Source of the DNA: an uncultured virus (IMG/VR IMGVR_UViG_2687453178_000004)
Lineage: Duplodnaviria; Heunggongvirae; Uroviricota; Caudoviricetes
Strand: one strand, 5' to 3'
Length of the DNA: 64,000 nt
IMG/VR virus record: IMGVR_UViG_2687453178_000004
The notes beneath the pieces are model-generated. The model was not told the origin of the DNA. It worked only from the letters and a program-made list of their open reading frames with translations, and searched no databases. Made by a program: the position numbers and the translations under genes. Below are positions 13,364-60,880 of the stretch, in pieces. Position 1 is the first letter of the stretch. Each line of letters begins with the position of its first letter.

Positions 13364-13644
13364 CGGTATCCCCTCTAAATACTAAATAGGAAATAGACGA
13401 TGAAATTATATCTTTAAAAAGTATCGATTGATTACATTTATCACCGAAAGAAAACAAAATAGTTTTTCATTTGAAATTCAAAATGATATGCTACAAAAAA
13501 GCTTGACTATCACGCCTAACGGTAATTATTCTACTCGGGCAACGGCAAAATCCGTTGTCGGGATTAGTACCCCGCAATTGCAAAGGCGTGATAACGCCAG
13601 CTTTACGCTGGTTTTTTATTGCGTGATTCAGTGCGCCCAAATTA

Positions 13645-13718
13645 TGGTGGACTGGATAAGGGCGCTTCGGCGCGCCGTTTCCTTTGTAGCGGTAGTACTA
13701 ACCTTGTTCAGTTCACCA
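13645..13718 (+). ncRNA. c4/CI-type antisense RNA, copy 2 (specificity loop GTACTAA)
   Basis: Same fold as copy 1; loop complementary to TTAGTAC at 13564 and 13727. Confidence 0.8.
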
Positions 13719-13774
13719 CCAGCAGATTAGTACCTCTTGGTGGTGATTTAAATGTCATTACAAAGGAGGCGACT

Positions 13775-14383
13775 ATGCCAGCACAAACTACACTCCCAAT
13801 CGAACAACATCGTCCAGAAGATCTCGTCTTTATCTCTCAAACAAATAAACTTGTCACCGATTCTTTTTTGGTCGCTAAGTACTTTGGAAAGCGTCACGAC
13901 GACGTGCTTAGAAAGATAAGAAACCTAAATTGCTCGTATACCTTTACAAACCGCAATTTTACGGTTTGCCATAAAAACAATGAGTTACAGAACAACAAGC
14001 TCCAACCGTTTTATCAAATGACAAAAGATGGGTTCATATTCTTGGTGATGGGCTTTACCGGAAAGAAAGCTGCCATAATCAAAGAAGCTTACATCAATGC
14101 TTTTAACTTAATGGCTGAGAAGCTAACCAAGCAGAGTGAAAACTCCATCGACTTCAATCCAAATCTCTACAAAGACTTCGTTGACTTGAAAGAGCATGTA
14201 AACTTTAGAGTGTTGATTGACGTGGTTGCTGGACGAGCAAGTGGGCTCCAGTTTGTGCCCGATGACGCTTTTGTGTGTAATAAAGAGAAGTTTATGCACT
14301 ACATGAACAACAACCGAATCTTCACCAATCAAGACATTATTAAGATCAACACTATTGCAGCTAAACGTCTTAGCTTGATGTAA
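13775..14383 (+). CDS. rha: Rha family phage regulatory protein/antirepressor, copy 2
   Basis: Same motifs as copy 1; differs mainly in one N-terminal patch. Confidence 0.88.
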   Translation: MPAQTTLPIEQHRPEDLVFISQTNKLVTDSFLVAKYFGKRHDDVLRKIRNLNCSYTFTNRNFTVCHKNNELQNNKLQPFYQMTKDGFIFLVMGFTGKKAAIIKEAYINAFNLMAEKLTKQSENSIDFNPNLYKDFVDLKEHVNFRVLIDVVAGRASGLQFVPDDAFVCNKEKFMHYMNNNRIFTNQDIIKINTIAAKRLSLM

Positions 14384-14419
14384 AACAAAATAAAGCCAGC
14401 TATTAGCTGGCTTTATTTT

Positions 14420-14697
14420 GCCTCGACTGCAAAGTCTCCGGTATTGGCCCTAAAGAAAAACACTATTTCCTTTTGACCTCCTCTTTAAATACTGAAACTG
14501 ACAATTCCTTACTCACACATACACACCTCGGATTGAATGATAAAAATGTTGTCGCTACGTTAATGCCTGTTCAGGACATGGAGGCCAGCATTAACAAGAC
14601 ACTGCTCCTTAAATATAAAAGTTCAGATAAGCACGACCTAATCTGCCATCAACAGGCGGATGTATTCATAGAAAAATTGTCATTACATTTAGCATAA
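14420..14697 (+). pseudogene. Possible 3' remnant of a gene truncated at the repeat boundary
   Basis: Frame is open from the repeat edge to a TAA overlapping the EamA ATG; no good start or RBS. Confidence 0.35.
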
Positions 14698-15650
14698 TGA
14701 GTATTAATATGTCTAAAAACAAGCTAACAATATTGTTATTTTTTTCGGTTTGCATAATTTGGGGGACAACCTGGTTTGCAATGGAAGTAGCAGTGTCGAC
14801 GATCCCCCCTTTATTTGCTACAGGTATGCGCTTTCTCATTGCTTCTACCATTTTGATTTTCTTGGCAAAAGCATTCAATCAACCATTGTTATTTCCACGA
14901 GGTAAAGGGCACTGGTTTGTTGTAGTCTCTATTTTTTATTTTGCTATCCCATTTACCTTAATGATTACAGGTGAGATGTTTATCTCATCAGGATTAGCTT
15001 CCATTATTTTTGCCAACATGCCTATTGCGGTCATGATGGCATCAACGATCTTCCTTGGACTTCGTTTAGCTGCACACCAAATATTGGGTGTATTTACTGC
15101 CGTCGCGAGCTTGTGTGTGATTTTATCAAATGAACTTGATATCGGAGGAGAAGCGATCTTTATTGGTTCGGCCGCCCTGAGTATTGCGGTACTGATCCAT
15201 GCTGTTATGTATGTTTTAGTACAAAAATACTGCACTGAAATCCAAGTCATTACCTACAACGTAATGCCAAGTTTTCTTGCTTCGCTACTGCTTTTAATTG
15301 GTTCATTCCTATTTGAAAAACCAAATATTTTAGCATTTTCACCTCAATCTATAATGGCTGTTGCTTATCTTGGCATATTTGCTAGTGTGGGAGGTATAGT
15401 GGCCTACTTTAAACTAGGAAATATATCTTCTCCGTTTGTCGCTTCACTTTGTTTTATGATATTTCCCCTAATAGCACTTTCTATCAATGCATATATAAGC
15501 GGCAATGTAATATCGTTCCAATCTTTATTTATGTTAATCCCTCTACTCATCGGTGTTCTATTCGCAAAATTGGATTTAAGGGGGAAAATTTTGAATTGCA
15601 ATTTAAATAGCCAGATGAAGAAAAAATATTTTTCTTTATCTGAAAAATAA
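14697..15650 (+). CDS. EamA/DMT family transporter
   Basis: IIWGTTW, IPPLFATGMRF and ISSGLASII motifs; about 10 TM helices; AT-rich moron. Confidence 0.88.
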   Translation: MSINMSKNKLTILLFFSVCIIWGTTWFAMEVAVSTIPPLFATGMRFLIASTILIFLAKAFNQPLLFPRGKGHWFVVVSIFYFAIPFTLMITGEMFISSGLASIIFANMPIAVMMASTIFLGLRLAAHQILGVFTAVASLCVILSNELDIGGEAIFIGSAALSIAVLIHAVMYVLVQKYCTEIQVITYNVMPSFLASLLLLIGSFLFEKPNILAFSPQSIMAVAYLGIFASVGGIVAYFKLGNISSPFVASLCFMIFPLIALSINAYISGNVISFQSLFMLIPLLIGVLFAKLDLRGKILNCNLNSQMKKKYFSLSEK

Positions 15651-16250: not shown

Positions 16251-16661
16251 TTAATGCGGTCTATCCTGTTGCTCGATGTACTGACGAATAACAGTTAGTG
16301 GCGCACCTCCACATGTTCCAGCAAAGTAAGACCGACTCCAAAGCACATTCTTACCAAACGCTCCTGCTACATCATTAAATTCCCTGCGAATCCTGCGTGA
16401 ACTGGTTGCTTTTAACGAGTTCACCAATTTTGCAACGCTAGGTGTATTCGGAGATGTTGATATTAGCAAATGAACATGGTCAGGCTCTCCGTTAAATTCC
16501 TTTAGCTCTGCATCAAAGCCCAAACAAAGCTCCCTGAAAGTCGCCTCAAGACTTTGTAGATGCAAATCTCCAAACACTTTCTTTCTGTATTTTGTCACGA
16601 AAACGATATGTAAATGCAGTGAATAACAACTATGCCTACCCTTATTAAAACTACCGCACAC
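16251..16661 (-). CDS. tnpA: IS200/IS605 HUH (Y1) transposase
   Basis: HIVFVTKYR, EPDHVHLL, LWSRSYF and RQYIEQQ motifs. Confidence 0.93.
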   Translation of the reverse strand: MCGSFNKGRHSCYSLHLHIVFVTKYRKKVFGDLHLQSLEATFRELCLGFDAELKEFNGEPDHVHLLISTSPNTPSVAKLVNSLKATSSRRIRREFNDVAGAFGKNVLWSRSYFAGTCGGAPLTVIRQYIEQQDRPH

Positions 16662-16724
16662 TGATATTGCCTTTAGATATAAGTTGATAATATAAATACA
16701 TTATCAAGATTCACACTGACTGTC

Positions 16725-17903
16725 ATGTTAATACGCAAAGCATACAAATTTCGGTTAGAGCCTACCGCTACCCAAGCGGCTAGACTTGCTGTGCTTTGCG
16801 GTCATGCTCGATTTGTGTGGAATCAAGGCTTGCGCCACTGCTTAAACAAGTTGGACTCTGGCGAGAAAATACCAAGCGCATTCGAGCTTAATAAGCTGAT
16901 AACTCAGTGGAAGAAGCAAGACGATTTATCGTGGCTCAAAGAGGCATACACTGACAATCTACAACAAAAGCTCAAAGACCTTCATACGGCTTGGATGCGA
17001 TGCTTCGACAAGTCATTAGCTGCTGATAAGCCTAGATTTAAAAAGAAAGGTAAAAACCAAGATTCAGTGCGCTTTGTTAACTTTAACAAATACTGCGAAC
17101 TAGATGGTAAGCGTGTAAAGCTACCGAGCAAGCTTGGCTGGCTGAAGTTTCGCAAATCACAAGAAGTGCAAGGCAACATTAAGAACTGTACTGTTAGTTT
17201 TAAGTCTGGTCACTGGTATATATCGTTCCAAGTTGAGCAAGAAATTGATGAACCTAAGCATACCTCTAGCTCTGCCGTTGGTATTGATATGGGTGTTGCC
17301 AAGTTCGTCACATTGTCTGACGGCTCATATCTAAAGCCGCTTAACGCATTCCGTAAGCATGAAAAGCGCTTAGCTGTTGAACAGCGCAAGCTATCAAGAA
17401 AAGTTAAGTTTTCTGCTAACTGGCAGAAACAGAAAGCCAAAATTCAAAAGCTACACACTCTCATTGCGAATTGTCGCAAGGACTACTTACATAAAGCCTC
17501 ACATCAAATCAGCAAGAACCACGCGATGATAGTGATTGAGGACTTACGTGTATCAAACATGTCTAAGTCAGCAAAAGGCAATGCAGAAAAGCACGGTAAA
17601 AATGTGAAAGCTAAGTCAGGGTTGAACAAATCAATACTTGATCAGGGTTGGTATGAGTTCAGAAGACAACTAGAGTACAAGCAATTATGGAATGGTGGTT
17701 TAGTTGTCGCTGTGCCAGCGCAATACACAAGCCAAACCTGCCCTTGTTGCAGTCATGTATCGAAAGATAACCGTAAAACTCAATCTCATTTTGAGTGTAT
17801 TAAGTGTGGTTACACCAACAATGCAGATATTGTTGGCGCATTAAATATTTTAGAGCGGGGACACCGCTTGTTAGCCTGTGGAGAGTCGGCGTTAGCCGCT
17901 TGA
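16725..17903 (+). CDS. tnpB: RNA-guided endonuclease TnpB
   Basis: AYKFRL, RuvC GIDMG/VIEDL/NADIVGALNI, zinc finger CPCC..CIKC. Confidence 0.93.
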   Translation: MLIRKAYKFRLEPTATQAARLAVLCGHARFVWNQGLRHCLNKLDSGEKIPSAFELNKLITQWKKQDDLSWLKEAYTDNLQQKLKDLHTAWMRCFDKSLAADKPRFKKKGKNQDSVRFVNFNKYCELDGKRVKLPSKLGWLKFRKSQEVQGNIKNCTVSFKSGHWYISFQVEQEIDEPKHTSSSAVGIDMGVAKFVTLSDGSYLKPLNAFRKHEKRLAVEQRKLSRKVKFSANWQKQKAKIQKLHTLIANCRKDYLHKASHQISKNHAMIVIEDLRVSNMSKSAKGNAEKHGKNVKAKSGLNKSILDQGWYEFRRQLEYKQLWNGGLVVAVPAQYTSQTCPCCSHVSKDNRKTQSHFECIKCGYTNNADIVGALNILERGHRLLACGESALAA

Positions 17904-26097: not shown

Positions 26098-26958
26098 TTA
26101 GGCTTCTAAAAATTCGAATGGAGTTTGCATATCCCCCTCTGTCCAAGTGGCGTATTGATTAAATAGCTTTTCCAATCGAATAGCATAAGCATCTTTAATT
26201 TGCTGGATCTGATTGTACGTCAGTCTTACAGGTTCATTATTTGCTGCAATCCAGACCGTCTCTTTATCCAGCATATTATTGCGCTCTGCATACCATAGCG
26301 TTTCATCCATGTTGTTCCGGTCAACTTGGCGAACTTGGAACTCATATCCATGAATAAAGATGTTTGATAGTTTTATTTCATCTCGCAAAGCTTGCGCCTT
26401 GTTCCGATGAAACTCCGCGATCACATTGTCAGGTTTTCTCTCGACAACTGGCGTCTTGGTAACGGTAAATTCTTCGTCATTGACCAAATAATCGTATTCA
26501 CCATTATGAGTGTAATAATTAGCGTCGTATGGCACTTCAATCACTTCATAAACGGCGCGGCGATTTTGCATATCGATCACTGGCCGCGCTGGTGGCAACG
26601 TGGCAACTTCTTCACCATCTTCGCCAATAGTGATTTCAGGAACAAAGTTCTCTACATCCACCAGCCATTGAAGATATTGATCGTGGTTTACTTGAAAATC
26701 TTCCCAAGCAATTGCTCGTTCAAGCTCTGGCTTAACAACTTGCTCCCAAGACTTACGCTCACCGCGTCTTTGGTTTACATCATGAAAAGTAATCTCTTCA
26801 GGCTTATTAAGAACAATGACCGTGTATTGCTCGGTTATAGGGGAAGGTTCCTCCCCCTCTGTGTAGCCAATCACTCGTTCTCGAATATGTTCAGCATAGT
26901 AATGCCGGATATTCTCATCAATATCGGTTAAGGCCGTGTAGTCGGTATCAATGATCAT
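26098..26958 (-). CDS. Tail fibre assembly/chaperone-like protein (DUF4376-like C-terminus)
   Basis: Overlaps the tail fibre stop; FQVRQVDRNN..WIAANNEPVRLT motif. Confidence 0.6.
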   Translation of the reverse strand: MIIDTDYTALTDIDENIRHYYAEHIRERVIGYTEGEEPSPITEQYTVIVLNKPEEITFHDVNQRRGERKSWEQVVKPELERAIAWEDFQVNHDQYLQWLVDVENFVPEITIGEDGEEVATLPPARPVIDMQNRRAVYEVIEVPYDANYYTHNGEYDYLVNDEEFTVTKTPVVERKPDNVIAEFHRNKAQALRDEIKLSNIFIHGYEFQVRQVDRNNMDETLWYAERNNMLDKETVWIAANNEPVRLTYNQIQQIKDAYAIRLEKLFNQYATWTEGDMQTPFEFLEA

Positions 26959-29348
26959 AAATCCACCCCACTGACTTGAGAACCAGCACGAGCTTTATTC
27001 TTTGTGTAACCGTATGGAATTGCCAGCTCATGCGTACCATATAGACAAGTATCGCCATTGAGGTTTATGAATGTTCCAATACCGTCAATGATTCGAACTG
27101 TTGAATCGTCGCCCCAACCGTCACCTGTATATAGTTGAATTGTACTTACTGCATTTGAAGACTTACTTTTTATCACATTGTTTGCGTCAACATAGTAAGC
27201 GGTATAGTCCACTGGAATACTAGCCTCATTACCATTCCAAATAACGAGTCTGCCATTCAATGCACTTCCAGCAACGTTAACAAGATAAATAGCACCACGC
27301 TTACGAAGCATTTGAGCACCAGTGTCAACAATTGGATTGGTGAACGGCTTGTAAACTAACTCATTCCAAGCAAAGTTCAATGAACACTGCTGGTTATCAG
27401 CAGTTTGATACCATAGAGCTTTAACAGCAGGACTGTTATTACTTGGTGCAGGCATTGTAATTGGTGAATGTACTGTTGGGTCATTAACTGAAGTTGCTAA
27501 ACGTTGAGCACCACGTTCCCAACCTAAACGAGTGATAGGATGGAAAGCACCACCAGTACTTGCAGCACTACTTGTACATACTTTACCCATCAATGATTCA
27601 GCAAGTTTTACACTCCACCATAAATGGGAGTGACAAATCTCAGTAACTAAACCAAGACCTTCATGCTGATTTAGTACTACTTTATTGGTACTTACCTTAG
27701 TCTGTTTAGCAAATGCTGTGTAGTTATAAACATTTATTCTATTTACTGGTAAAGAGGAAGTAAAACTGTTAGTTGTTATATTGTAGTTGGTAGCGGTAGA
27801 AAACCATGTAACACCGTTATCTGTGGTGTACTGAGTAGTACCTTGTTCTAAACCCTTACGAGTAAGTTTACACTCTTTACTCGTACCATCAGGGATAACC
27901 GGAATCCAACCACCTAACCAACCATTGGCCAATGCAGGAGTAGCAAGAATCTTAGCAGGAGAACCAACTACATCTACTTGAGTGAAGTCACCTGATACAG
28001 GGATGTTGGTAGTAATATGTTGTACAAAGTACATTGGTTTATTACTGACAATATCTTGAACAACTCCATTAGGCTTAGTATTTTCCCATGCACTTTGCCC
28101 ACAGTAGATTTGTGTAGTGCTTGAACCAGATGCTTGGAATAGGTACGTAACAGGAAATACCTTAGACTCTTGAACCAACCAACCAATAATAGGGGCAGAT
28201 GCACCAGACGTACCTAATGCACCATCGCTAATTACAAAGTCAGCAGCAGAGGCATTCCACTTATACATCCCAGACACAACACCTTGATATGTTGCACCTT
28301 GAGTACTACCAAATACTTTAGTCTTAGTAAGTAATTCTTCACCACGATAAGTACCATTAACTACTTTCTGGAAGATCTTAGAAGCTTCTTCCTTGCTACC
28401 CATATCGCAAGCAGATAGACGGTAGTCAATTACACCACCTTGACCTGAAGCATAGATAGCGTCATAGAACTTACCATCCGGTCTACCACAGAATTTATCT
28501 CCTGCGGCTATAGACCCACTAAGTGTTGAACTTGATGCAGTAGAGCCTACAACTTTACCAACTAAATATGGGTAAGAAGTACGATTTGCACCAGTAAAGT
28601 CAAAGCAATCTGCTGTATTTTTTAAAGGTACTGCATCGACTGCATACCATTTTCTTGACCAATCTCTACCAGTTGTTTCTAGTACAGAAGCTGAACCCAT
28701 AGGGTTAAAGCTAGGATGGTAAGCACCTTGGTTCAGTCTAGGAACTACACCACATACGTGGAAGTAACAATGACCATCAACAGAAATAGTTGTGTCATCA
28801 GTAAGTTCCCACACACCTAACTGTTTATGGTTAGCAGAGTTGTGTGTAATACCTACAAAAGTTCTAGCCCAAGACGGAGTTAAAATTGAATCACTGGAAC
28901 CCTGTGCTTGAACACAATCATTTAAGATAGGGCTTGTACTATACAAAGTAGCATTACCAGTAACTAAAGATAGATCAGCCCACTTACCATTACCCGCACC
29001 TGCAATAGTACGTTGACGCACACGCCATTGAACAAGTCGGCCATCATCAAGTAAATAAATGTTGTGATCAGGATTAGAGACTAAAGCTCTCTTTTGAGCA
29101 TCAGTTGCAGCCCAAAAATCAACGCCTTTACCCTTCGAAGTTGTATCTCCATCGAATACCGAATAGTAGGTAATAGGACGATTCGATTCTTTTGTTGCAA
29201 TCCCTTCGATGCTTGTTAGTTTTGACTGAATACAACCATAAGGGTAAACAAATGGATTGGCCTTGCTGATTTCTTCTAAGAAGTACTCAAAACCAAACAA
29301 ATCTACACGGTTGATTACTACTTCTTCGGTAGCGAGAGAAACTGATAC

Positions 29349-30608
29349 AGAAGTGGACCCCAACGGTTGGACACATAAGCTCATTTCTTAAGTGGTTGAC
29401 CCAGCTCATGCTGCGTATCTTTGCCTACCGAAGTAGGCCTCATCAGGAGTGAGGTTATTGAGTCCTTGATGGTTACGCTCTTCATTATAAAACACCATGT
29501 AGTTGCCGATTTCAAGCTCGGCTTCACGGGGCGTGGTATAAGCCTTTAAGTAAACCTCCTCATATTTCAGGCTTCGCCATAATCGCTCAATGAAAACATT
29601 GTCAACCCAGCGGCCTTTCCCATCCATGCTTATACGTACGTTATGCTCAATTAACTTCTGTGTGAACTCTGTGCTGGTAAACTGGCTGCCTTGATCTGAG
29701 TTAAAGATATCAGGTGGCCCATAATGCTTCAGCGCTTCCTCAAGCGCTTCGATACAAAAACTCGTGTCCATGGTGTTGGATAGTCGCCAAGCCAGCACTT
29801 TGCGGCTATACCAGTCGATAATCGCAACGAGGTACAGGAACCCCTTCGCCATTGGGATATATGTGATATCAATCGCCCAAGCTTGGTTTGGGTAAGTGAC
29901 TTCGATATCACGCAACAGGTAGGGATACACCTTGTGTGCTTTGTTCGCCAGCGTCGTTTTGGGCTTGGGGTAAATCGCCCCAATCCCCATATCGCGCATG
30001 AGTCGAACAACACGCTTACGATTAACGCTATGGCCATTTTTAGCCAGCTCAGTTCGAATGCGCCGACTGCCCATAAACGGATACTGCAGATGAATTTCGT
30101 CAATCATTCGTCGTAACGTGATCTCCTCAGCAGAGAGTCCGATGGGTTGATAGTAAGCGGTAGAGCGAGCAATATTGAGCAGCTCACATTGGCGCTTTAT
30201 CGGCAATGGGGTGGATTTAACCAGCGAACTCTTTCGCTGGGCTCGGTCTAACGACCGAGCACTTTGGCCAAAAAATCATTTTCCATGGTCAATTGACCGA
30301 TCTTGGCGTGAAGTTTGTCCACTTCTTCGGAACTCTCTTTTCCTGAGTGATTTTCGGTGGCAAAAATCATGGCTGCGTTTTCAAGCAGCTCCTTTTTCCA
30401 TGTTGAGATCTGGTTAGCGTGCAGGTTATATTTCTGAGCTAGCTCAGCGACGGTTTTATCGCCTTTAGCGGCATCGAGAGCCACCTTAGCTTTAAACTCA
30501 GGAGAGTGGTTTCTACGTTTTCTAGTCATAATCTGTCCCTGTATTGTTGGGTACTATCAAAACAGATCGACCACTTAAAGTCATGTCCGAAAATTGGGGG
30601 CCACTTCT
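29349..30608 (-). mobile_element. IS3-family element, copy 2 (orfA 30248-30529, orfB ending at 29406)
   Basis: Same ORF translations and ends as copy 1. Confidence 0.95.
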
Positions 30609-31281
30609 TTATTGAACCACGCTGAGCACGCGGATGCCGTGACAGGGAGTATCCTTCCTCATCAAACGAATCATCGTTAGTCTCCGTGGGTTGGGGAAAC
30701 GTTCATATCATTTCTCCTTGAATAAAGTTCTTCAAATTATCTTGCAACGGGAGACCAGCTAGAAGTCAGCTCGCTTTCGCGCCAGATAACAACCTGTATC
30801 CGCATCATTACAACACGGCTTTCGCTTTTTCTAGCCTCCTTTACCTGCACCACTATCGGCGGTCTTTGCAGACCGCTTTCCCAAAGGGAGAAGTACAGGC
30901 TTACCCTGTTCCGTATGTCGCGCAACGTCGGGTTAGATGCCCACTATAATGCGGAGAGCGTCTTGATCACGAAAGAGCACTGTCCAATCTCTTTCCTACT
31001 CTCATGCCTTTTGGCCACAGCGTATTAACCACTTCCGCTGATCCACGTATAACGCATCTTAAATGGATTCACTTACGTTCATCATACCAACACCCTAGCA
31101 CTCACCCAATTGTGGTTATCAGGAGGAACGTCCTCTCACGAATTCATTCCCGCTCAGCAAAGGCTGAACTTCGTTACATTGTCGGGTTCGCTGCTTTATT
31201 CAGAACCCTAGGGTCATCTGGTGATACAGATGGTTCACACTTGTTGCGGTGAACAGCACTTCATACGACTTCAGGTCGCAC
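30609..31281 (-). mobile_element. 5' fragment of a group II intron, truncated by IS; no RT ORF or domain V seen
   Basis: Begins GTGCGACCTGAAGTCG at 31281; contains GAACGTAAGTGAA and GGAACAGGGTAAGCCTG segments typical of domain I; non-coding and higher in GC than its neighbours. Confidence 0.7.
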
Positions 31282-31646
31282 GGACAAAAGTGTGTCATCG
31301 CTTTTGCTAAATTAGCAAATTACGGATTAGGTAAAATTGGGGGGCGTTGCCCCCGCCTCCGTTCTGTTATCAAACTCCTTTACAGCCCTTTTCTAGAAGG
31401 ACTTTAACTAATGACACCAAGGAGTACAGCAATGGCTATTGACGCACTGAGGGGCAAAGAAGCCCATAATAAACTTTTCCACATCAATCAAAAAGTCAGA
31501 TGTGGAATAGTTTAAGTTAAGTTGGATCATCTCAGCTATATAATATAATTAATACAAAAACGTCTAAAGCGTTGCTGCCATTAATCCCCAACAACTATAC
31601 CCTTCAGTGTTCGCTTTATTTCCGCACCAACATCTTTTACATAACC

Positions 31647-32555
31647 TTAGGGGTGACCATGTTCTTCATGCTCATCGCGACAAGTTTCTTGGGGAAACTC
31701 AAACTCAATGGTTGTATGAGATAAATTAAAGGAAGATAGCTTCATAGCCACTTGTTGTTTTAGCCCAATTAATTTATCGACTTCAAAATTATGGGCTAAC
31801 TCTAAGTGAGCTGTTAATACGTGACTTTCCCCGTCAAGTGACCAAAAATGAATATGATGGATACCGTTAACTTCAGGTAATTCGTTTAGTAATTGCTTTA
31901 TACTTTCTTGAGTCTCATCATCTGGAGCGGCTTGTAGAAATAAGACGAGTGTTGATTTCAGGTTTCTGAAAACATTAAATAAAATGAATAACGTGAAGCC
32001 AATCGATAGTAGAGGATCTAATATGGGTAACTCTACAAAAAGTAGCACGATAGAAACGATGAGTACGGTAACCCAACCGAGTACATCTTCAAGAAGGTGC
32101 CATGTCAGCACTTTTTCATTTAATGTTTCACCCGCTTTTAATTTAAATACCGCATATCCGTTAACGACAACACCGAGTATAGCTAGCCCTAACATCCCCT
32201 CGACCGCTGGCATTTCAGGGTTGGATAACCTTGGTATGGCTTCAAATAAAACCCAAATAGAACCAATGATTAAAACAATACTGTTTACTAATGCACCAAA
32301 CAGTGTAAGGCGACGATAACCATAGCTAAATCTATCTGACGATTCTTTATCTGAAAAACGACTTAAAATCCACGCAAAACCTATTGAAAGACTATCACCA
32401 AGATCGTGAACGGCATCTGCCATTATCGCCGTACTGTTTGTGAGCCATCCTCCAATAAACTCGATAATAGTGAATGTCACATTCAGAAAGAACGCCCAAC
32501 CAATGCGGTTGTCTTTTCCATGAGTGTGGGTATGACTGTGGTTATGGCTGTGCAT
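31647..32555 (-). CDS. czcD: Cation diffusion facilitator (CzcD/ZitB-like Zn/Co/Cd efflux)
   Basis: His-rich N-terminus; ADAVHDLGD, FSYGYRR, HLLEDVLGW and HTTIEFE motifs. Confidence 0.9.
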   Translation of the reverse strand: MHSHNHSHTHTHGKDNRIGWAFFLNVTFTIIEFIGGWLTNSTAIMADAVHDLGDSLSIGFAWILSRFSDKESSDRFSYGYRRLTLFGALVNSIVLIIGSIWVLFEAIPRLSNPEMPAVEGMLGLAILGVVVNGYAVFKLKAGETLNEKVLTWHLLEDVLGWVTVLIVSIVLLFVELPILDPLLSIGFTLFILFNVFRNLKSTLVLFLQAAPDDETQESIKQLLNELPEVNGIHHIHFWSLDGESHVLTAHLELAHNFEVDKLIGLKQQVAMKLSSFNLSHTTIEFEFPQETCRDEHEEHGHP

Positions 32556-32773
32556 TTTGTACCTCCGGCACTTTAAAGTTTCTTAGATTGGTTACGTTAA
32601 AATTGATCAGGTGACGGATCACTCGTTGATACATCCAACGTTTAATTCCCGACAAGTTAGTCCCTTTTTCGCGATAGAACTCATCTGGAGAGTCATAAAG
32701 TCCAAAATCATCATTAATGCCTTCTTTTTGTATATAAGTATCGGTTCCACGCCAATCTGTATCAGGTGAAGAG
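32542..32773 (-). pseudogene. C-terminal remnant of an upstream gene (possibly transglutaminase-like), cut by IS copy 3
   Basis: Open frame runs into the IS end and overlaps the czcD start. Confidence 0.5.
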
Positions 32774-34033
32774 AGAAGTGGACCCCAACGGTTGGACACA
32801 TAAGCTCATTTCTTAAGTGGTTGACCCAGCTCATGCTGCGTATCTTTGCCTACCGAAGTAGGCCTCATCAGGAGTGAGGTTATTGAGTCCTTGATGGTTA
32901 CGCTCTTCATTATAAAACACCATGTAGTTGCCGATTTCAAGCTCGGCTTCACGGGGCGTGGTATAAGCCTTTAAGTAAACCTCCTCATATTTCAGGCTTC
33001 GCCATAATCGCTCAATGAAAACATTGTCAACCCAGCGGCCTTTCCCATCCATGCTTATACGTACGTTATGCTCAATTAACTTCTGTGTGAACTCTGTGCT
33101 GGTAAACTGGCTGCCTTGATCTGAGTTAAAGATATCAGGTGGCCCATAATGCTTCAGCGCTTCCTCAAGCGCTTCGATACAAAAACTCGTGTCCATGGTG
33201 TTGGATAGTCGCCAAGCCAGCACTTTGCGGCTATACCAGTCGATAATCGCAACGAGGTACAGGAACCCCTTCGCCATTGGGATATATGTGATATCAATCG
33301 CCCAAGCTTGGTTTGGGTAAGTGACTTCGATATCACGCAACAGGTAGGGATACACCTTGTGTGCTTTGTTCGCCAGCGTCGTTTTGGGCTTGGGGTAAAT
33401 CGCCCCAATCCCCATATCGCGCATGAGTCGAACAACACGCTTACGATTAACGCTATGGCCATTTTTAGCCAGCTCAGTTCGAATGCGCCGACTGCCCATA
33501 AACGGATACTGCAGATGAATTTCGTCAATCATTCGTCGTAACGTGATCTCCTCAGCAGAGAGTCCGATGGGTTGATAGTAAGCGGTAGAGCGAGCAATAT
33601 TGAGCAGCTCACATTGGCGCTTTATCGGCAATGGGGTGGATTTAACCAGCGAACTCTTTCGCTGGGCTCGGTCTAACGACCGAGCACTTTGGCCAAAAAA
33701 TCATTTTCCATGGTCAATTGACCGATCTTGGCGTGAAGTTTGTCCACTTCTTCGGAACTCTCTTTTCCTGAGTGATTTTCGGTGGCAAAAATCATGGCTG
33801 CGTTTTCAAGCAGCTCCTTTTTCCATGTTGAGATCTGGTTAGCGTGCAGGTTATATTTCTGAGCTAGCTCAGCGACGGTTTTATCGCCTTTAGCGGCATC
33901 GAGAGCCACCTTAGCTTTAAACTCAGGAGAGTGGTTTCTACGTTTTCTAGTCATAATCTGTCCCTGTATTGTTGGGTACTATCAAAACAGATCGACCACT
34001 TAAAGTCATGTCCGAAAATTGGGGGCCACTTCT
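32774..34033 (-). mobile_element. IS3-family element, copy 3 (orfA 33673-33954, orfB ending at 32831)
   Basis: Same ORF translations and ends as copies 1 and 2. Confidence 0.95.
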
Positions 34034-36086
34034 TACTTCGTGAACTAAGATACTTGAACCAGTAGCATTGCCTTTAGGTTGGATAATAAAAGAAGTTAAA
34101 CCTGTAAAATCAGCAGTAAATTCATTAACCCCTTCATAGAGTCTTTGAGATACATATGCACTAGACCCAAGTTTATACTGCCATACAGGAGCAGCACCGC
34201 CTTTAAGATCACTAATAACAATACGTATTTTATTCACACCTGCGCGAGGCCCGAAACCTTGAGGGAATAATTGACCATTAACAGAACCGTTAGTAGTAAG
34301 ACGTAAAGCACCATTCTCCATAACCATAGTTGCTGAGTTACTTACACCCCAGCTAACAGTATTATCACGGAAGTCACCATTCTTAATTTGACCCTCAAAA
34401 GCTCTACCAACTGCTTCATTAACATCAGCAGCAACATTCCCATACTTAGGATCTACATCCTTAGTTAGGTCTAGGGTAGCTTTGCCTGAACCACGACAAT
34501 TACCAGTGGAGTCATAAACAACTGTACCGTTAGGAGCTTCAGGGAATTTGATAGCAAAACTATTAGCACCCTGTGCTGTAGTTACACCTAACAATTTAGA
34601 AATAAAACCAGCAATGTGAGTAACAGGAAAATCTGTTTTACTTGAACCACGTTTATTACCGCCAAGCTCACCCATCAAAAGCTGACCTGCTTGTGAGTAA
34701 AATTCTGCACCATCATTGGTAAACATACCTTCATTAATGGGAGTGAATGAAGCTGTATCAGCTACGTGCTTACCATAATGAACAAAACCACTAGCCGCAA
34801 ACTGTTCACTAGCTAGCATTCGTGCAGCTTTCATGTTTGCTTCGCTTTGGCAATAGATTTGCCAACCAACATAACTACCGGATTTAATCTCTTCCGCTAC
34901 TTGCTTTGTTTCATTCGCTAAGGCTTCAGTTTGCGTTTTCAGGGCTTGAGAATCAGTCTTGCTTTGTGCTGCGCTTGTAGCTGAAGCAGCCGCTTGAGTA
35001 GCCTTTTGTGTTGCCGTTGATGCTGCTTGTTCGGCGCTCTGTTTTAGTGAAGTCATTTCACTAATTGCTGCGGTTGATTGCTGCGAAATGGCTGCTTTTT
35101 CTGTGGTAGCTAGATCCGTGATTTCGGTTTTGCTTGCACTAACTAAGGTGTTAATTGCACCCTTGCTCGTATCGGTAAGTGACGTAATGCTATTAGTGCC
35201 ACCAGCAACTAGCTCTGAAATTTCACTCTTACTCGTTGTAGTAAGAGTTGTAATATCTTTTTTGCTCTGAGTGGCAAGCGCAGTGATCTCCTGCTTGCTA
35301 GTGCTCGTTAAAGCTGTGATTTCACCCTTAACGGTAGTCGCTTGCGTATCAATAGCCTCACTAATAGCAGTAGCCTTAGCATCAATTTCAGTTTTTGATG
35401 TACTTACAAACTGCTCAATATCTGTTTTGGTTTGCTGAACTTGAGAGGCTTTTAAATCCACATCGCTTTTTGCTTTGTTCACTAAAGCCAACGTGTCCGC
35501 AGCATCAGCCGCATAGCTCTTCGCTGAATACTTGCCTGGTTCAACTTCGACACCTTGCGCAGCATTAGAGTATTGACGAACAAGATCTAGAGCTGCCTGT
35601 GTATTAGCTAGATCATTTTTAATACTTTCAGACTGAGCGATCAGATTTGTGATATCTGACACCAGTGTTTGAAGTGGCACAACCTCAATAGTTGAGCCGT
35701 CATCGGTGTGAATAAAAACTTTGTCAGCCGTTGATGTGTAATAACCTCGAAGGTCATCAAGCAACACTTGTTTTGAGTTGATAGCCGCCGCGACCATTGC
35801 GGCCACACGAGTTGCAATAGTTACTGAAGTATTTCGAATGATCGCATACTCACCATTTGCTGGCGGAACGCCAGTAAATGGTCTGAACAGTGACAAATGT
35901 TCGTTATCGGTGATCGATTCGACCTCATAAATACTGCCAGCTATGAACATGATATCGCCAGCTAGCGGTTTATTTCCGGCATCAACCCATAACGTACCAA
36001 CGCCTACAACCTCTTTTGAGCCGTCGGTTACAGTTACCGTACCTCTTCGATACCAGCTACTACTCATTGTGCTCTACTCCAATTAA

Positions 36087-48641: not shown

Positions 48642-48977
48642 TTATAAGAACCGGATGCAGTAGTCCACTAGGGTTTTCTGCAAATCTTGCTTATCACTAA
48701 TCAAAACCATGGCGTAAACCGTATCTGTCGCATCGTCGTATTGATAGATAAGTTTGAACCCATCAAAACTAAACTGACGAAAGTGATACACTCCAAGCTG
48801 AGTTAGCTCATAACAAGCCGGATATATGGCCGGATTGCTCTCAACGTTCTGCTCGAACGTCTCAATCAAAGTTTCAATTCTCTCTACTACGCTAGTGGAA
48901 TCATTCCATTGTGAGTAGTAGTCAATACGTTCTTCTGCTGTGTTAGCGAACGTTTCCGTATAAACAACATTGGCCAT
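48642..48977 (-). CDS. RelE/ParE family toxin
   Basis: VVYTETF and FRQ...GFKLIY motifs; downstream of an antitoxin. Confidence 0.75.
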   Translation of the reverse strand: MANVVYTETFANTAEERIDYYSQWNDSTSVVERIETLIETFEQNVESNPAIYPACYELTQLGVYHFRQFSFDGFKLIYQYDDATDTVYAMVLISDKQDLQKTLVDYCIRFL

Positions 48978-48989
48978 CTTATGGTCACC

Positions 48990-49232
48990 TTATGATTTCT
49001 TGGCGGCCAACCTCTCCTTAAACGAACTCGATGACATTGTGCGACCTTGGGCTACGTCCTTGCTACTGATAGTAACAAGCTTCATCAAGGCTACTGCTTG
49101 ATCGCGCTTTAGTCGTTCTTCGTATGATTCCACCACATAAATCGGCTTACCGTTTTGTGTGATCGTCATCGCTTCATCTAGCGGGAGATCGGCTGCATTT
49201 TTCTTTAAGTAGCTTACCGTCTCAGTGCGCAT
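48990..49232 (-). CDS. Phd/YefM family antitoxin
   Basis: ETVSYLKKNAADL and ITQNGKPIYVVESYE motifs. Confidence 0.88.
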   Translation of the reverse strand: MRTETVSYLKKNAADLPLDEAMTITQNGKPIYVVESYEERLKRDQAVALMKLVTISSKDVAQGRTMSSSSFKERLAAKKS

Positions 49233-49712
49233 GGTTCTTCCTTCGGTATAAGGGCGAGTAAACCAGCTAAATTTAAAAATTAGTCTGGGATCATTTGTTT
49301 GCGTTACTAACTATACACCAAAACCGAGATTAGTCCAAATTTAAACTAAATTTAGTTTACGCCCAACTCGGATTGTTCGATTAAGCGCTCTTTATGCTTA
49401 TTAACCATAAAAACGACTACTTGAAAGAGCTTTTGCAATAGGCATTGCAAACTCATTTATGCCCCATTGTTGGTTATCACTGAAGCGAATTAACTTCATC
49501 TGGATGAAAGTCTCCCTTGCCGACAGCTATCCAAGGTAGTCGAAGTAAGCTTTTTAAACTATCCGTCATTTTGCAATTCAATATCCATCACCTCTCATTA
49601 ACCTATTGATTATCAATTGAACTGTAATTGGAAAGATTGCATGATAGGAGTATGGAAGGCGGCTAAAATCCGTATAGAAAGCGTTAGCTTAAATCATTAA
49701 CAAGGATGTGTA

Positions 49713-50054
49713 ATGAGAAATAGAAAATGGATATTTGCAGCTATTTTGCTCATTGGTGGACCTTCACTATTGCCATTTAGTTTGGAAGTGATATCCCTAA
49801 TTGAGTTACTAGGCTTTTTGGGGTTATGGACAATTTATTCATCCTACGCTGAATACTTGGTGAATCACCCTAGATTCAAAAGAGGTCTGCGTTTAGCCAC
49901 TAGTTGGGATTTTCAGCCGCAAATGCTGTTCTCTCCGAGTGAACTTAAGGAATGTCCCCAGTTAGTTTTTCATATGCTTCCAGTTCAGAGTGTAATAGTT
50001 TGGACTTTGAATATTCTGTTTTGGGGTGGTCTGGCTTGGTGCTACATAATTTAA
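49713..50054 (+). CDS. Cassette 1: membrane protein of unknown function
   Basis: AAGGA RBS; three hydrophobic segments; stop codon abuts AGCTAAC. Confidence 0.75.
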   Translation: MRNRKWIFAAILLIGGPSLLPFSLEVISLIELLGFLGLWTIYSSYAEYLVNHPRFKRGLRLATSWDFQPQMLFSPSELKECPQLVFHMLPVQSVIVWTLNILFWGGLAWCYII

Positions 50055-50179
50055 GCTAACAAATTGTTCAAGAGGGATTCGCAACGCGTGGCATTTTTAC
50101 TATGCGTTGGTTTTAGTGATTAAGGTGGCTTGCGGCGGCATCGGTATTGCGTTGCTCACCCCTTAACAAGGCGTTATGC
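50054..50179 (+). repeat. attC site 1
   Basis: AGCTAAC...TTGTTCAAG...GCAACGC...GCGTTGC...CTTAACAA..GTTATGC. Confidence 0.92.
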
Positions 50180-50267
50180 ATTTTGAGGCGAAGGATGTAT
50201 GGAAATAGATTTGCATCATCCCATTCTGTATAATGCAGCTTTCATTTAACTTTCTAGTTAAGTAACC

Positions 50268-50690
50268 ATGAAAACTGATGACATTACTGAAGTATCTTTA
50301 TCATTTGAGCTATATAACGAGATGAAACAATGGTGTAGTAAACAGAAATTGTTTACTACATCATATAACCATGGTTGGAAACCTTTTAAAGACGGTCAAG
50401 AAATTTTAGTCGACCGTACTTATACCATTAACTTTTGTTTTCAAAGTACAACTATTGCAGATAAACATGGACGTCAAAATACCTTCTATAAAATAAAGCG
50501 AGGTGGTAGACCTACTACTCGATATGGGCAAAACAGCAGTCCTGAAGATAAGGAGCGTCTGCGTTCAGAAACTCCTTCGTACGAAGCTATGATTTATCCT
50601 GCCTTAACACGTTGTCAATCTCAAATCAGAAAAGTTAAACGAGGTTTAACTTTAGAAGCTTTGAATGATCCTTCAAATATAGCGTTTTAA
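50268..50690 (+). CDS. Cassette 2: hypothetical protein
   Basis: 140-aa ORF filling the cassette; TATAAT upstream at 50229. Confidence 0.7.
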   Translation: MKTDDITEVSLSFELYNEMKQWCSKQKLFTTSYNHGWKPFKDGQEILVDRTYTINFCFQSTTIADKHGRQNTFYKIKRGGRPTTRYGQNSSPEDKERLRSETPSYEAMIYPALTRCQSQIRKVKRGLTLEALNDPSNIAF

Positions 50691-50724
50691 GCAGTTAATA
50701 CTGATATGTCTAACCCCAGAAAAT

Positions 50725-50850
50725 GCATAACAAACAATTTAAGAGCGATTCAGCACGCTTGGCATTTTTGGTTTGAGTTTAGTTTAGTGTTTACGGTGGT
50801 CAAATTAGGTGTTGTGGTCGCGTGCTTCACACCTTAACAGGGCGTTATGC
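50725..50850 (+). repeat. attC site 2
   Basis: GCATAAC...TTTAAG...AGCACGC...GCGTGCT...CTTAA...GTTATGC. Confidence 0.92.
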
Positions 50851-50894
50851 CACATATTTAGTTTGCCGAGATAGAAAATTAATTAGGTTGTAAA

Positions 50895-52139
50895 ATGAGC
50901 AAAGATGACAAGAAAACAGATTTTATCGGCAAGGAAGAAAACAATTTAAAGACTTTCTTTGATTTAAATCACATAAAATCGAAATCTGAAAGTGAGTACA
51001 CGAAAAGGGTTTGGAAAAGCCTTAGCAGCGATAGAGATGATGGAAAGTTTGACGATATTTTCTCTGATGTGTTTGAAAGTGTATTTAAAAATATTTCTGC
51101 TAAAGTTTCTGATTCAGTAATAAAAGCAGTCGACGATGAGGCAAGTCGTAAGAAAGTAATCCGAGAGCTGAAGAATCATTACAATAATGAAAGCCTCACA
51201 TTGATCTTGGGGGCAGGGGTTTCAATGGATCTTGGTTTACCATCATGGGACGAATTGCTGCGTAGATTGTTAGCAAAAACGCTTGATAGTGCGGATAAAG
51301 AAAGTACTGTGATGGCAGCGATGTTTAATTCAGTTTTTGGTCCAAGTAGCTTAATAGCGGCGCGCTACTTGAAACTTCACTTTGAGAAAGAGAAGCATGA
51401 AAAAAATGGGAGGAAGTTCCCTTTTGAAACTGAAGTTCGCAAAGCTCTATACGAGAACTTTAATGAGGTAGAAACGCCTATCTATAAAGCGATTGTACAA
51501 CTATGTGTATCTCCAGGAAAGAATCCAAGTTTGGATTCTGTTATCACTTACAACTACGATGATATTTTGGAAGAAAAGCTTAAAGCGTTGGACTTGGGGA
51601 TCAAATATAAAAGTATTTACACCTTGGGGATGAATCCGAGAAAAGATGAGCTTCCAATCTATCATGTACATGGTTATCTTCCTCGTTCTGGAAACGTCAC
51701 GGATAAGCATGCCGTTATCCTTTCTGATGATAGTTATCATAAGCAGTATATGGACCTCTATCACTGGAGTAATTTGGTTCAGATAAACAAGTTTAAGGAC
51801 TCTAATTGTTTGTTTATTGGGCACTCTTTTTCAGATCCAAATTTAAGACGTCTTTTAGATGTAGCAAAATCTCAACGTGGGCATGATAAAACCCAACATT
51901 ATGTAATAAAACGTAGATACAACGTCGATAAAGTAAAAGAGACTCTTAAAGAATTACTAGTAAAGGAAAAATTAGTAGATGTACTTAATCATTCAGATGA
52001 ATTAGATGCAGTTGCATCTGGTTTAGTAAAGACAGTGCATAAATTCGAAGAGAATGATGCGATATCTTTTGGTGCCGAGATAATTTGGGTTAACGAATTT
52101 TCAGAAATATCAGATATTATCGAGAGCATTCCAAAGTAG
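50895..52139 (+). CDS. Cassette 3: SIR2-family (SIR2_2) protein, putative anti-phage NADase
   Basis: [26 protein letters not shown] and [12 protein letters not shown] motifs. Confidence 0.88.
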
Positions 52140-52266
52140 CATAACAAAGCATTTAAGACGGATTCCCAACGCTCGGCATTTTCGGTTTGCTTTGAATTTA
52201 GTGTTTACGGCACAATACTTTAAGTGTGGTGGTCTGCGTTGCTCACACGTTAACACTGCGTGATGT
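52139..52266 (+). repeat. attC site 3, degenerate 3' end
   Basis: GCATAAC...ATTTAAG...CAACGC...GCGTTG, but ends GTTAACACTGCGTGATGT without a GTT core at the expected position. Confidence 0.8.
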
Positions 52267-52490
52267 TATTGGAAGGCCGTGGTGGAACATCAGTTTAAAT
52301 TTCGCATCGGAAGTCGGCTCACTTGATGTCCAGTATTAATGGTTACACAGTGTGACCATAGACTCGCTAAGTCTTCAGGGAAAGAACAGCGTACACACAC
52401 GTATACACGGTATGTACGCTCTACATGCATTCTTTCACACGCAAATAGACATGGTTTTTACTGAATACTCAATCTCGGTGGCTGATATTA

Positions 52491-60244: not shown

Positions 60245-60880
60245 ATGTCTATGTCTGTGCTTGCTCGGAACATTGAGCAAAGGAAACGGGATTTAAACAT
60301 AACCAAAAGCATCGACTTGGCAAAGAGATCTGGTGTAAGTCGAGCGGTGTTAACCAACATCAAATTGAATCCAGAAAAAAGTATCATGCTTGATTCGGCT
60401 ATCAGGCTAGCAGATGCCCTCGATTGCCGTCTTGAGTGGTTAGCTACTGGTGAAGGTTCGCCAACGGCTGACGAATACAAAGAGCTTTCTCGCATTGAAC
60501 TAGGTGCTCCCCTAGTATCATTAAACTCGTTCGTTGACGTTGACCCAGATGAGTTTTTAAAAACGGGCGTTTCAGAGCGCACTCAACGATTCCCTTGCCC
60601 TAGTGGAAACTCAAAGAGTCAATTCGTTGTAAAGGTGAACGACCAAATCAAAAACTATCCTGCTGGTGGCTACTTGTACTTTGACATTGATAAATCACCT
60701 GTGTCTGGTCAATTGGTTGTAGCAAACACTGGTAACAACGTGGAGATCATGGAATACCAATCCGCACACGGTAGGCAGTTTTTGAAATCCATGAATGAAG
60801 AGTTACCTCTTGAATTGCGTCTTGTAGAAATCACTGGTCAGAAATTAATTGGCACTTTCGCTGCGTATGCGATATTCTAA
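60245..60880 (+). CDS. CI-like repressor (XRE HTH plus degenerate S24-like domain)
   Basis: DLAKRSGVSRAVLTNI and LADALDCRLEWLATGEG motifs; divergent from the replication operon. Confidence 0.82.
   Translation: MSMSVLARNIEQRKRDLNITKSIDLAKRSGVSRAVLTNIKLNPEKSIMLDSAIRLADALDCRLEWLATGEGSPTADEYKELSRIELGAPLVSLNSFVDVDPDEFLKTGVSERTQRFPCPSGNSKSQFVVKVNDQIKNYPAGGYLYFDIDKSPVSGQLVVANTGNNVEIMEYQSAHGRQFLKSMNEELPLELRLVEITGQKLIGTFAAYAIF

Follow-up and report, generated by a model that had tools for sequence, protein, structure and literature searches.

This locus raises the question of how a run of integron cassettes comes to lie inside a prophage that encodes no integron integrase, and whether the run was captured once or is still being loaded. 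The window, the whole stretch of DNA analyzed (64,000 nucleotides), comprises the initial 64 kb of an IMG/VR record 66,553 bp long (IMGVR_UViG_2687453178_000004), a contig classed as a complete provirus. The comparisons described here make it highly probable that the prophage acts as a stand-alone integron platform, with the chromosomal integrase of the host likely inserting superintegron cassettes at a single G/TT junction (the slash marking the point of crossover).

The genes of the contig are those of a temperate short-tailed phage and include a P22-like portal, capsid, terminase, a 2,784-aa protein, a replication initiator, antirepressors and a repressor. The array has terminase, portal and capsid genes on its left and genes for replication, antirepressors and repressor on its right, in agreement with an earlier note on this DNA that had placed the array between the early and packaging regions and had described its genes (plus strand) as opposed to the flanking phage genes (minus strand), which they are. 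The last ORF of the contig (387 aa) is read as a phage tyrosine integrase from its motifs. Since the named members of the repressor and toxin protein clusters come from V. parahaemolyticus and V. alginolyticus, the host likely belongs to that group. The prophage is common, judged by the presence of its small terminase sequence on 512 contigs, and no copy of the right flank of the phage was found in 285 genus genomes. Segments 33947-36067 and 26955-29384 match consecutive parts of a single PHROG, so that a large structural gene is apparently split; within the split region (26955-36067) two identical IS3 copies flank a cation-efflux gene and a group II intron fragment (31098-31233). Because of this IS3-bounded insert the window's copy of the phage may be defective and possibly unable to form particles, which counts against its mobility. 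A QueD-like gene and an EamA transporter lie within or at the edge of the prophage (1-603 and 14697-15650), and an IS200/IS605 element lies at 16251-17903. The features of the array and its left border are as follows.

48642..49232, minus strand: Phd/ParE toxin-antitoxin pair (Pfam ParE_toxin, PhdYeFM)
49460..49686, plus strand: solo integron platform module, ~225 bp, no intI, conserved in plasmid, phage and chromosomal copies
49617..49645, plus strand: predicted cassette promoter (TTGAAC, 17 bp, CATGAT), of a motif class present in solo copies
49631..49689, plus strand: attI homologue, crossover G/TT at 49683/49684, three GAAAG-type repeats ~23 bp apart
49684..50173, plus strand: cassette 1, ORF 49713-50054 (113 aa, hydrophobic), attC1 at 50054-50179
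50174..50844, plus strand: cassette 2, ORF 50268-50690 (140 aa, no family), attC2 at 50725-50850
50845..52260, plus strand: cassette 3, ORF 50895-52139 (414 aa, stand-alone SIR2_2 protein)
52139..52266, plus strand: attC3, terminal and degenerate (R' GTG, L-box mismatch, fold probability ~1e-7)
52261..52340, plus strand: short stretch common only to array-bearing phages, aligned in the window, L010 and L012

Three complete cassettes with matching core and inverse-core pairs had been proposed. All six boxes were found at their coordinates (GTTAGCT at 49683 with AGCTAAC at 50054, GTTATGC at 50173 with GCATAAC at 50725, and GTTATGC at 50844 with GCATAAC at 52139), and completeness holds as far as the core pairs go but fails for the third cassette, which has no intact exit site. 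The three attC-type repeats correspond to direct-repeat families D1 and D2, and cassettes 1 and 2 have complementary ends of 15 nt and 12 nt. An attC profile gave three matches in the 66,553-bp contig, all within the array (E 1e-36, 7e-30 and 9e-29, values that are partly circular as the profile was seeded with two of these same sites). The integron-integrase family TIGR02249 had no match anywhere in the 66,553-bp contig, as expected from the reported absence of an integrase. The locus is thus a CALIN, with three clustered attC matches (two with canonical boxes) and no integron integrase in the contig; of the further features of a complete integron, it has an attI heading the array, by homology and junction comparison, and lacks an intI beside it. 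The GC content of the array is 0.37 vs 0.44-0.45 in the flanks, and Rfam had no match inside the array.

When the attC bottom strands were folded without constraints, only attC2 took up the canonical hairpin; constrained folding was used for the probabilities of the recombinogenic fold, which were 0.18 for attC1, 0.02 for attC2 and ~1e-7 for attC3. The last site ends in G/TGATGT (52260) where G/TT is expected and has a G:G mismatch in its L box (52157/52249); given this degeneracy (R' GTG, L' mismatch), cassette 3 is probably fixed in place. The right end of attC3 (G before TTAA, xAC spacer, R' GTG) is common to the related phage L010, which has a different type of left arm; the damaged right half is partly common to the relative L012. 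The three right-end oddities occur 0, 1 and 0 times among 297 attC sites of long arrays, the attC3 spacer is found in 0 of the 91 long-array sites having its left arm, and attC3 is probably a hybrid site. The adjoining stretch 52261..52340 is absent from relatives L017, L018, L020 and L021 and is likely the stump of a former cassette.

An attI-like landing site had been suggested at 49600-49690, and the stretch 49631-49689 proved homologous to attI sites that lie next to intI. The 16-mer at 49670-49685 is identical to 13 intI-adjacent sites. Among 201 genus genomes, 28 contain it, at 40 places in total (the reversed control was found at 1 place); 30 of these places were fetched, 13 lying ~215 bp from the start of intI and 17 having no intI. 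Within the window the 16-mer is the sole match, allowing up to 3 mismatches. The last 30 nt of the window's site are identical at 26/30 and 23/30 positions to the attI of two genomes that carry cassette 1, and the V. anguillarum attI in phage record MK672802 has nearly identical terminal letters. An IntIA gene query against the plasmid collection gave no match. Matches to a 19-mer on five of eight matched genome contigs (L040-42, L044, L047) and on L045 were rejected as chance, nothing wider being matched there.

Upstream of the attI stretch, identity to an intI-attI spacer is ~50% over 150 nt. LexA-like boxes lie upstream of 10/14 intI-adjacent sites vs 1/55 solo copies, and none is present in the upstream DNA of the window's module. 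From the low upstream identity and the rarity of LexA-like boxes in solo copies, the module is not a broken-off integron head; an intI remnant upstream of the array was sought and not found, and the locus is not a continuous intI-attI-array fragment captured by the prophage. A promoter-like motif class is found in 46/57 solo copies (36 at the same offset) vs 0/14 intI-adjacent sites, a count that excludes 29 loci with other types of intI and in which the solo copies, being related, are not independent. The window's predicted promoter (49617..49645) matches 8/12 consensus positions and is not listed by the promoter scan; the RNA runs each contained at most 0.07 of the stretch.

The same slot was compared in 15 IMG/VR contigs bearing the left-flank protein at 93-99%, of which 4 carry the module, 7 carry other cargo and 4 end before the slot. 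The four module-bearing relatives hold three distinct arrays, because L008, over the length it covers, has the same array as L012. The sequences of the window, L010, L012 and L019 are alike as far as GAAAGCG/TTA and diverge immediately afterwards, with no common match over 150 nt. Their arrays contain 3, 4, 4 and at least 3 cassettes, respectively, the three complete ones (window, L010 and L012) measure 2,582, 2,683 and 2,429 bp, and the first core pairs with the first inverse core at 7/7, 6/7, 7/7 and 7/7 positions.

Sequencing runs extended this comparison and supplied its strongest evidence: 24 were listed, 6 contained at least half of the stretch and five were compared (X3, X4, X6, X9 and X12), X1 being set aside as a possible source of the window. 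Over 49000-49686, X3, X4, X6 and X12 (from 3 studies) differ from the window at 9, 9, 9 and 28 positions, all at or before 49386, so that the 300 bp at 49387-49686 are identical to the window; after the junction each goes on with a different sequence starting TTA. Cassette 1 is missing from X3 and X4, in which cassettes 2 and 3 and the right flank are kept (one X4 contig spans 50149-53200 with 10 differences from the window), while X12 keeps cassette 2 and lacks cassette 3, and X6 was compared over the left part only. Together, the four assembled arrays and four run starts place eight different first cassettes at the same G/TT in this phage family, as had been predicted for related prophages. 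Integrase insertion at attI yields an array with a variable front and a constant rear, which would account for the constant rear and variable front observed in these lysogens. The X4 contig breaks off 24 letters beyond the junction, as would be expected, with 31-letter assembly words, if the genome had another copy of that cassette elsewhere, behind an attC; the X4 cassette start was found behind an attC in a chromosomal stretch of 28 attC.

The cassettes had been expected in Vibrio superintegrons, and cassette 1 was located in chromosomal arrays and cassette 3 in a run free of the phage. Cassette 1 with its attC is present at 86-97% identity in 5/285 genus genomes, and its start was found behind an attC in five arrays and in a partial sixth match, at up to 98% identity. 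Four of the five genomes were fetched and in each the cassette stands behind an attC within long arrays; the array of G214 has 112 attC in 80 kb, and that of G129 has 58 attC in 39.5 kb and continues to intI. The 285 genus genomes include one with an 81% relative of cassette 3 and none in which cassette 2 was found. In run X9, which has no phage flanks, cassette 3 follows another attC and differs from the window at 2 of 1,339 bases. The landing-site reading of the earlier note thus draws support from the cassettes of relatives, from attI homology and from the superintegron origin of cassettes.

The upstream module is not confined to this phage. It was found in 50 records of the plasmid collection (70 places; 43 records from Vibrio, at least one chromosome-sized), in 29/301 Vibrionaceae genomes and on two unrelated viral contigs, and was absent from 50,697 GenBank phage records. 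Most of the module matches stop at the same G/TT, and no IntI match was found beside the plasmid, phage or chromosomal copies. Of 50 solo copies with at least 1 kb of downstream DNA, 27 have an attC match within 2.5 kb, with core pairing of at least 6/7 in 22 of these; the remaining 23 gave no downstream attC match, mostly in 1.5 kb of DNA searched, and many solo copies may therefore be decayed. Two pairs of copies (L036/L056 and L052/L161) have identical 150-nt modules and different first cassettes within each pair. A phage-like plasmid family (rep_cluster_803 in named records) bears the module with varying first cassettes (copies at L036:6829-7071, reverse, L056:5001-5249 and L161:5001-5203) and is likely a second case. 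One genome has seven exact copies of the core, of which four were fetched, one lying beside intI and three heading runs of 12-19 attC (modules at L191:6467-6632, L192:10689-10836 and L193:8868-9015). In a tree of 55 module copies, the four from this phage lie on one side of a branch (98/70 support, resting on 150 nt and below the strict support level of the tool), a pattern compatible with a single acquisition and later turnover in situ.

An alignment of 13 module copies contained no transposon-like ends, and a minus-strand GTT motif is present at the left edge of some copies only. Four distant solo sites (L133, L135, L134 and L150) have the attI core and a 17-bp-spaced promoter-like motif and are otherwise unlike the module in sequence, and in the filamentous phage vB_Vipa36 a single attC follows a small ORF (L049:5001-5122). 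On balance, we favor the view that the module defines a Vibrionaceae family of non-autonomous integrons, in which ~225 bp of promoter and attIA mimic would tap the host superintegron through its SOS-induced integrase, and which selection would maintain on temperate phages, on plasmids, phage-like ones included, and on chromosomal islands.

Other histories of the array were weighed against loading by the host integrase. Whole arrays might be swapped by homologous recombination, with module and attC as arms and no integrase acting on the phage, and this would suit the wide distribution of the module on plasmids and chromosomes, the hybrid look of the terminal attC, the mosaic slot and the lower identity of the module among the four assembled phages (92-98%) relative to the flanks (97-99%). 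It is nevertheless improbable, as the phage copies form a group of their own, as identity to the non-phage module copies compared reaches at most 88% in 150 nt, and as X3, X4, X6 and X12 have different first cassettes behind an identical 300 bp, two of them with the same distal cassettes retained.

That an ancestor once captured a long piece of superintegron, from which each lineage then lost different parts, has precedent in published captures of superintegron pieces by Vibrio prophages (in the accessible text of PMC9892861), and the common end of the terminal attC points to one ancestor. That ancestor would need at least 18 cassettes (14 plus 4 further starts), whereas the complete arrays are only 2.4-2.7 kb; moreover, the upstream DNA has the low identity to the intI-attI spacer and the absent LexA box described above, and deletions ending exactly at G/TT would need an integrase anyway, which makes this account very unlikely. 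Hardly credible is the view of the junction as a common secondary site of the attG type that was used by chance, with the array as neutral baggage. IntI does insert cassettes at many genomic sites (bioRxiv 2022.09.11.507474, in part) and most of the cassette genes have no known function, but the junction matches attI over 30-50 bp and has been reused eight times, and the window has no other match to the 16-mer.

The content of the cassettes bears on what the platform might do for the lysogen. The cassette 1 protein had no Pfam, PADLOC or NCBIfam match and belongs to a cluster of 146 members, the named ones from V. vulnificus, V. parahaemolyticus and V. alginolyticus; the cluster of the cassette 2 protein has 11 members, none named, and Atlas searches with cassettes 1 and 2 gave sub-threshold leads only. 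The cassette 3 protein matches Pfam SIR2_2 (E 1e-19), the ThsA profile (E 5e-22) and ThsA in the PDB (E 5e-8), its GAGxS, TYNYD and HVHG motifs are invariant in 11/11 homologues, and it is likely an NAD-degrading defense effector. It has the same SIR2_2 domain with conserved catalytic motifs as Thoeris ThsA and other SIR2 defense effectors. Unlike Thoeris, it is a single gene with no TIR-domain ThsB, and the match of its 414 aa is confined to the SIR2 part; the neighboring ORFs gave no family match, and assignment to Thoeris was rejected.

The locus had also been called a swappable defense slot. In module-less relatives the same slot holds a DRT4 reverse transcriptase (E 2e-235) or a NERD-UvrD gene (E 3e-66), at L015:1011-2678 and L017:4211-5932, and the slot is therefore used for defense; as for the cassettes, only 1 of the 14 genes in the four assembled arrays has a PADLOC profile match, none of the 11 cassette proteins from relatives having matched, and most cassette genes lack a known function. 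A defensive role of the cassette array itself is thus only partly supported. The Phd/ParE pair was rejected as part of the module and is a neighbor, being present also in module-less L014, L017, L018 and L022; a palindrome at 49337-49361, upstream of the pair and conserved in relatives retaining it, is likely its operator.

With respect to timing, a LexA-like box (14/16) lies at 919-934, ahead of an isrK/C4/Rha unit; a second viral contig also has this box. Two copies of the unit, 95% identical, are present (986-1956 and 13457-14426), and a third Rha-like gene lies beyond the end of the window. Units of the isrK/C4/Rha type may trigger prophage induction. The repressor (60245-60880) has no clear self-cleavage motif by eye in its C-terminal part, which would fit antirepressor-driven induction. 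Cassette loading may coincide with SOS induction of the phage, as the earlier note had supposed, the one basis for this being the LexA-like boxes.

The proposed mechanism is as follows. Host IntIA would act in trans on the phage attI homologue, probably under SOS, and new cassettes would enter at the front of the array, where they could be expressed from the predicted promoter built into the module. The far end of the array would be pinned by the dead attC3, and old cassettes would be lost by recombination between an inner attC and the terminal attC, which would keep the array at a length close to 2.5 kb. Some cassettes, a minority that includes the SIR2 gene, would probably protect the lysogen against other phages.

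Superintegrons contain hundreds of mostly silent cassettes, many of them anti-phage. If the above is true, an attI-bearing prophage would be a route for superintegron cassettes, which would be captured in the lysogen, expressed from the front position of a short array and transferred by the phage. A real module family would amount to a natural shuttle that moves superintegron cassettes between strains and switches them on, many short CALINs would be active recipients instead of remnants, and front cassettes would form a filtered candidate set for defense screens. The module would provide a short signature for sorting CALINs into active receivers and relics, current tools missing such attI (PMC9024848, in its accessible text).

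Published work was consulted in the portions accessible. Cury 2016 (PMC4889954) and Neron 2022 (PMC9024848) describe attI as unknown or undetected for most integrons and CALINs as likely degraded, and mobilization in trans is mentioned in PMC11389934 and PMC13515816. In PMC12614218 the loading of attIA by IntIA takes place where expected; bioRxiv 2026.03.17.712381 describes an engineered attI platform that takes up superintegron cassettes; and defense cassettes were shown by Darracq (bioRxiv 2024.07.02.601686), in the accessible text of which no mention of SIR2 was found. Phage CALINs are already published; no report of a solo attI family, actively loaded, or of phage cassette turnover was found in the literature search, which lay outside subscription papers and preprint supplements.

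Among known systems, the nearest are the 17 phage CALINs of Qi et al. 2023 (PMC9892861, in part), for which illegitimate capture was suggested. They share with the window an intI-less attC cluster inside a phage, but appear in that text as single static examples arising by illegitimate or off-target recombination, whereas the window's phage has turnover at one site in population data. The cryptic Shewanella prophage M16-3 of the same paper resembles the window in its CALIN headed by attI and differs in having its own intI. CALINs regarded as degraded integrons or hitchers (PMC4889954, PMC11389934, in part) depend in the same way on an integrase in trans; they are presented mainly as donors arising from integrase loss, translocation or secondary-site insertion, with attI not searchable, whereas the phage platform acts as a recipient headed by a module that recurs elsewhere. 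Insertion at attG secondary sites and SALINs, described by Loot et al. (bioRxiv 2022.09.11.507474, in part), likewise put IntI-placed cassettes outside an integron, and the window's site differs as a dedicated, reused attI homologue. With the sedentary chromosomal integron of Vibrio (IntIA, attIA, Pc and attC array) the window has in common the attI core, the attC type, the cassette pool and the order, with new cassettes in front and older ones behind. Unlike that integron, the platform is phage-borne, lacks intI and the LexA box, holds 3-4 cassettes before a dead terminal attC, and has another upstream region with a promoter-like motif inside the attI stretch.
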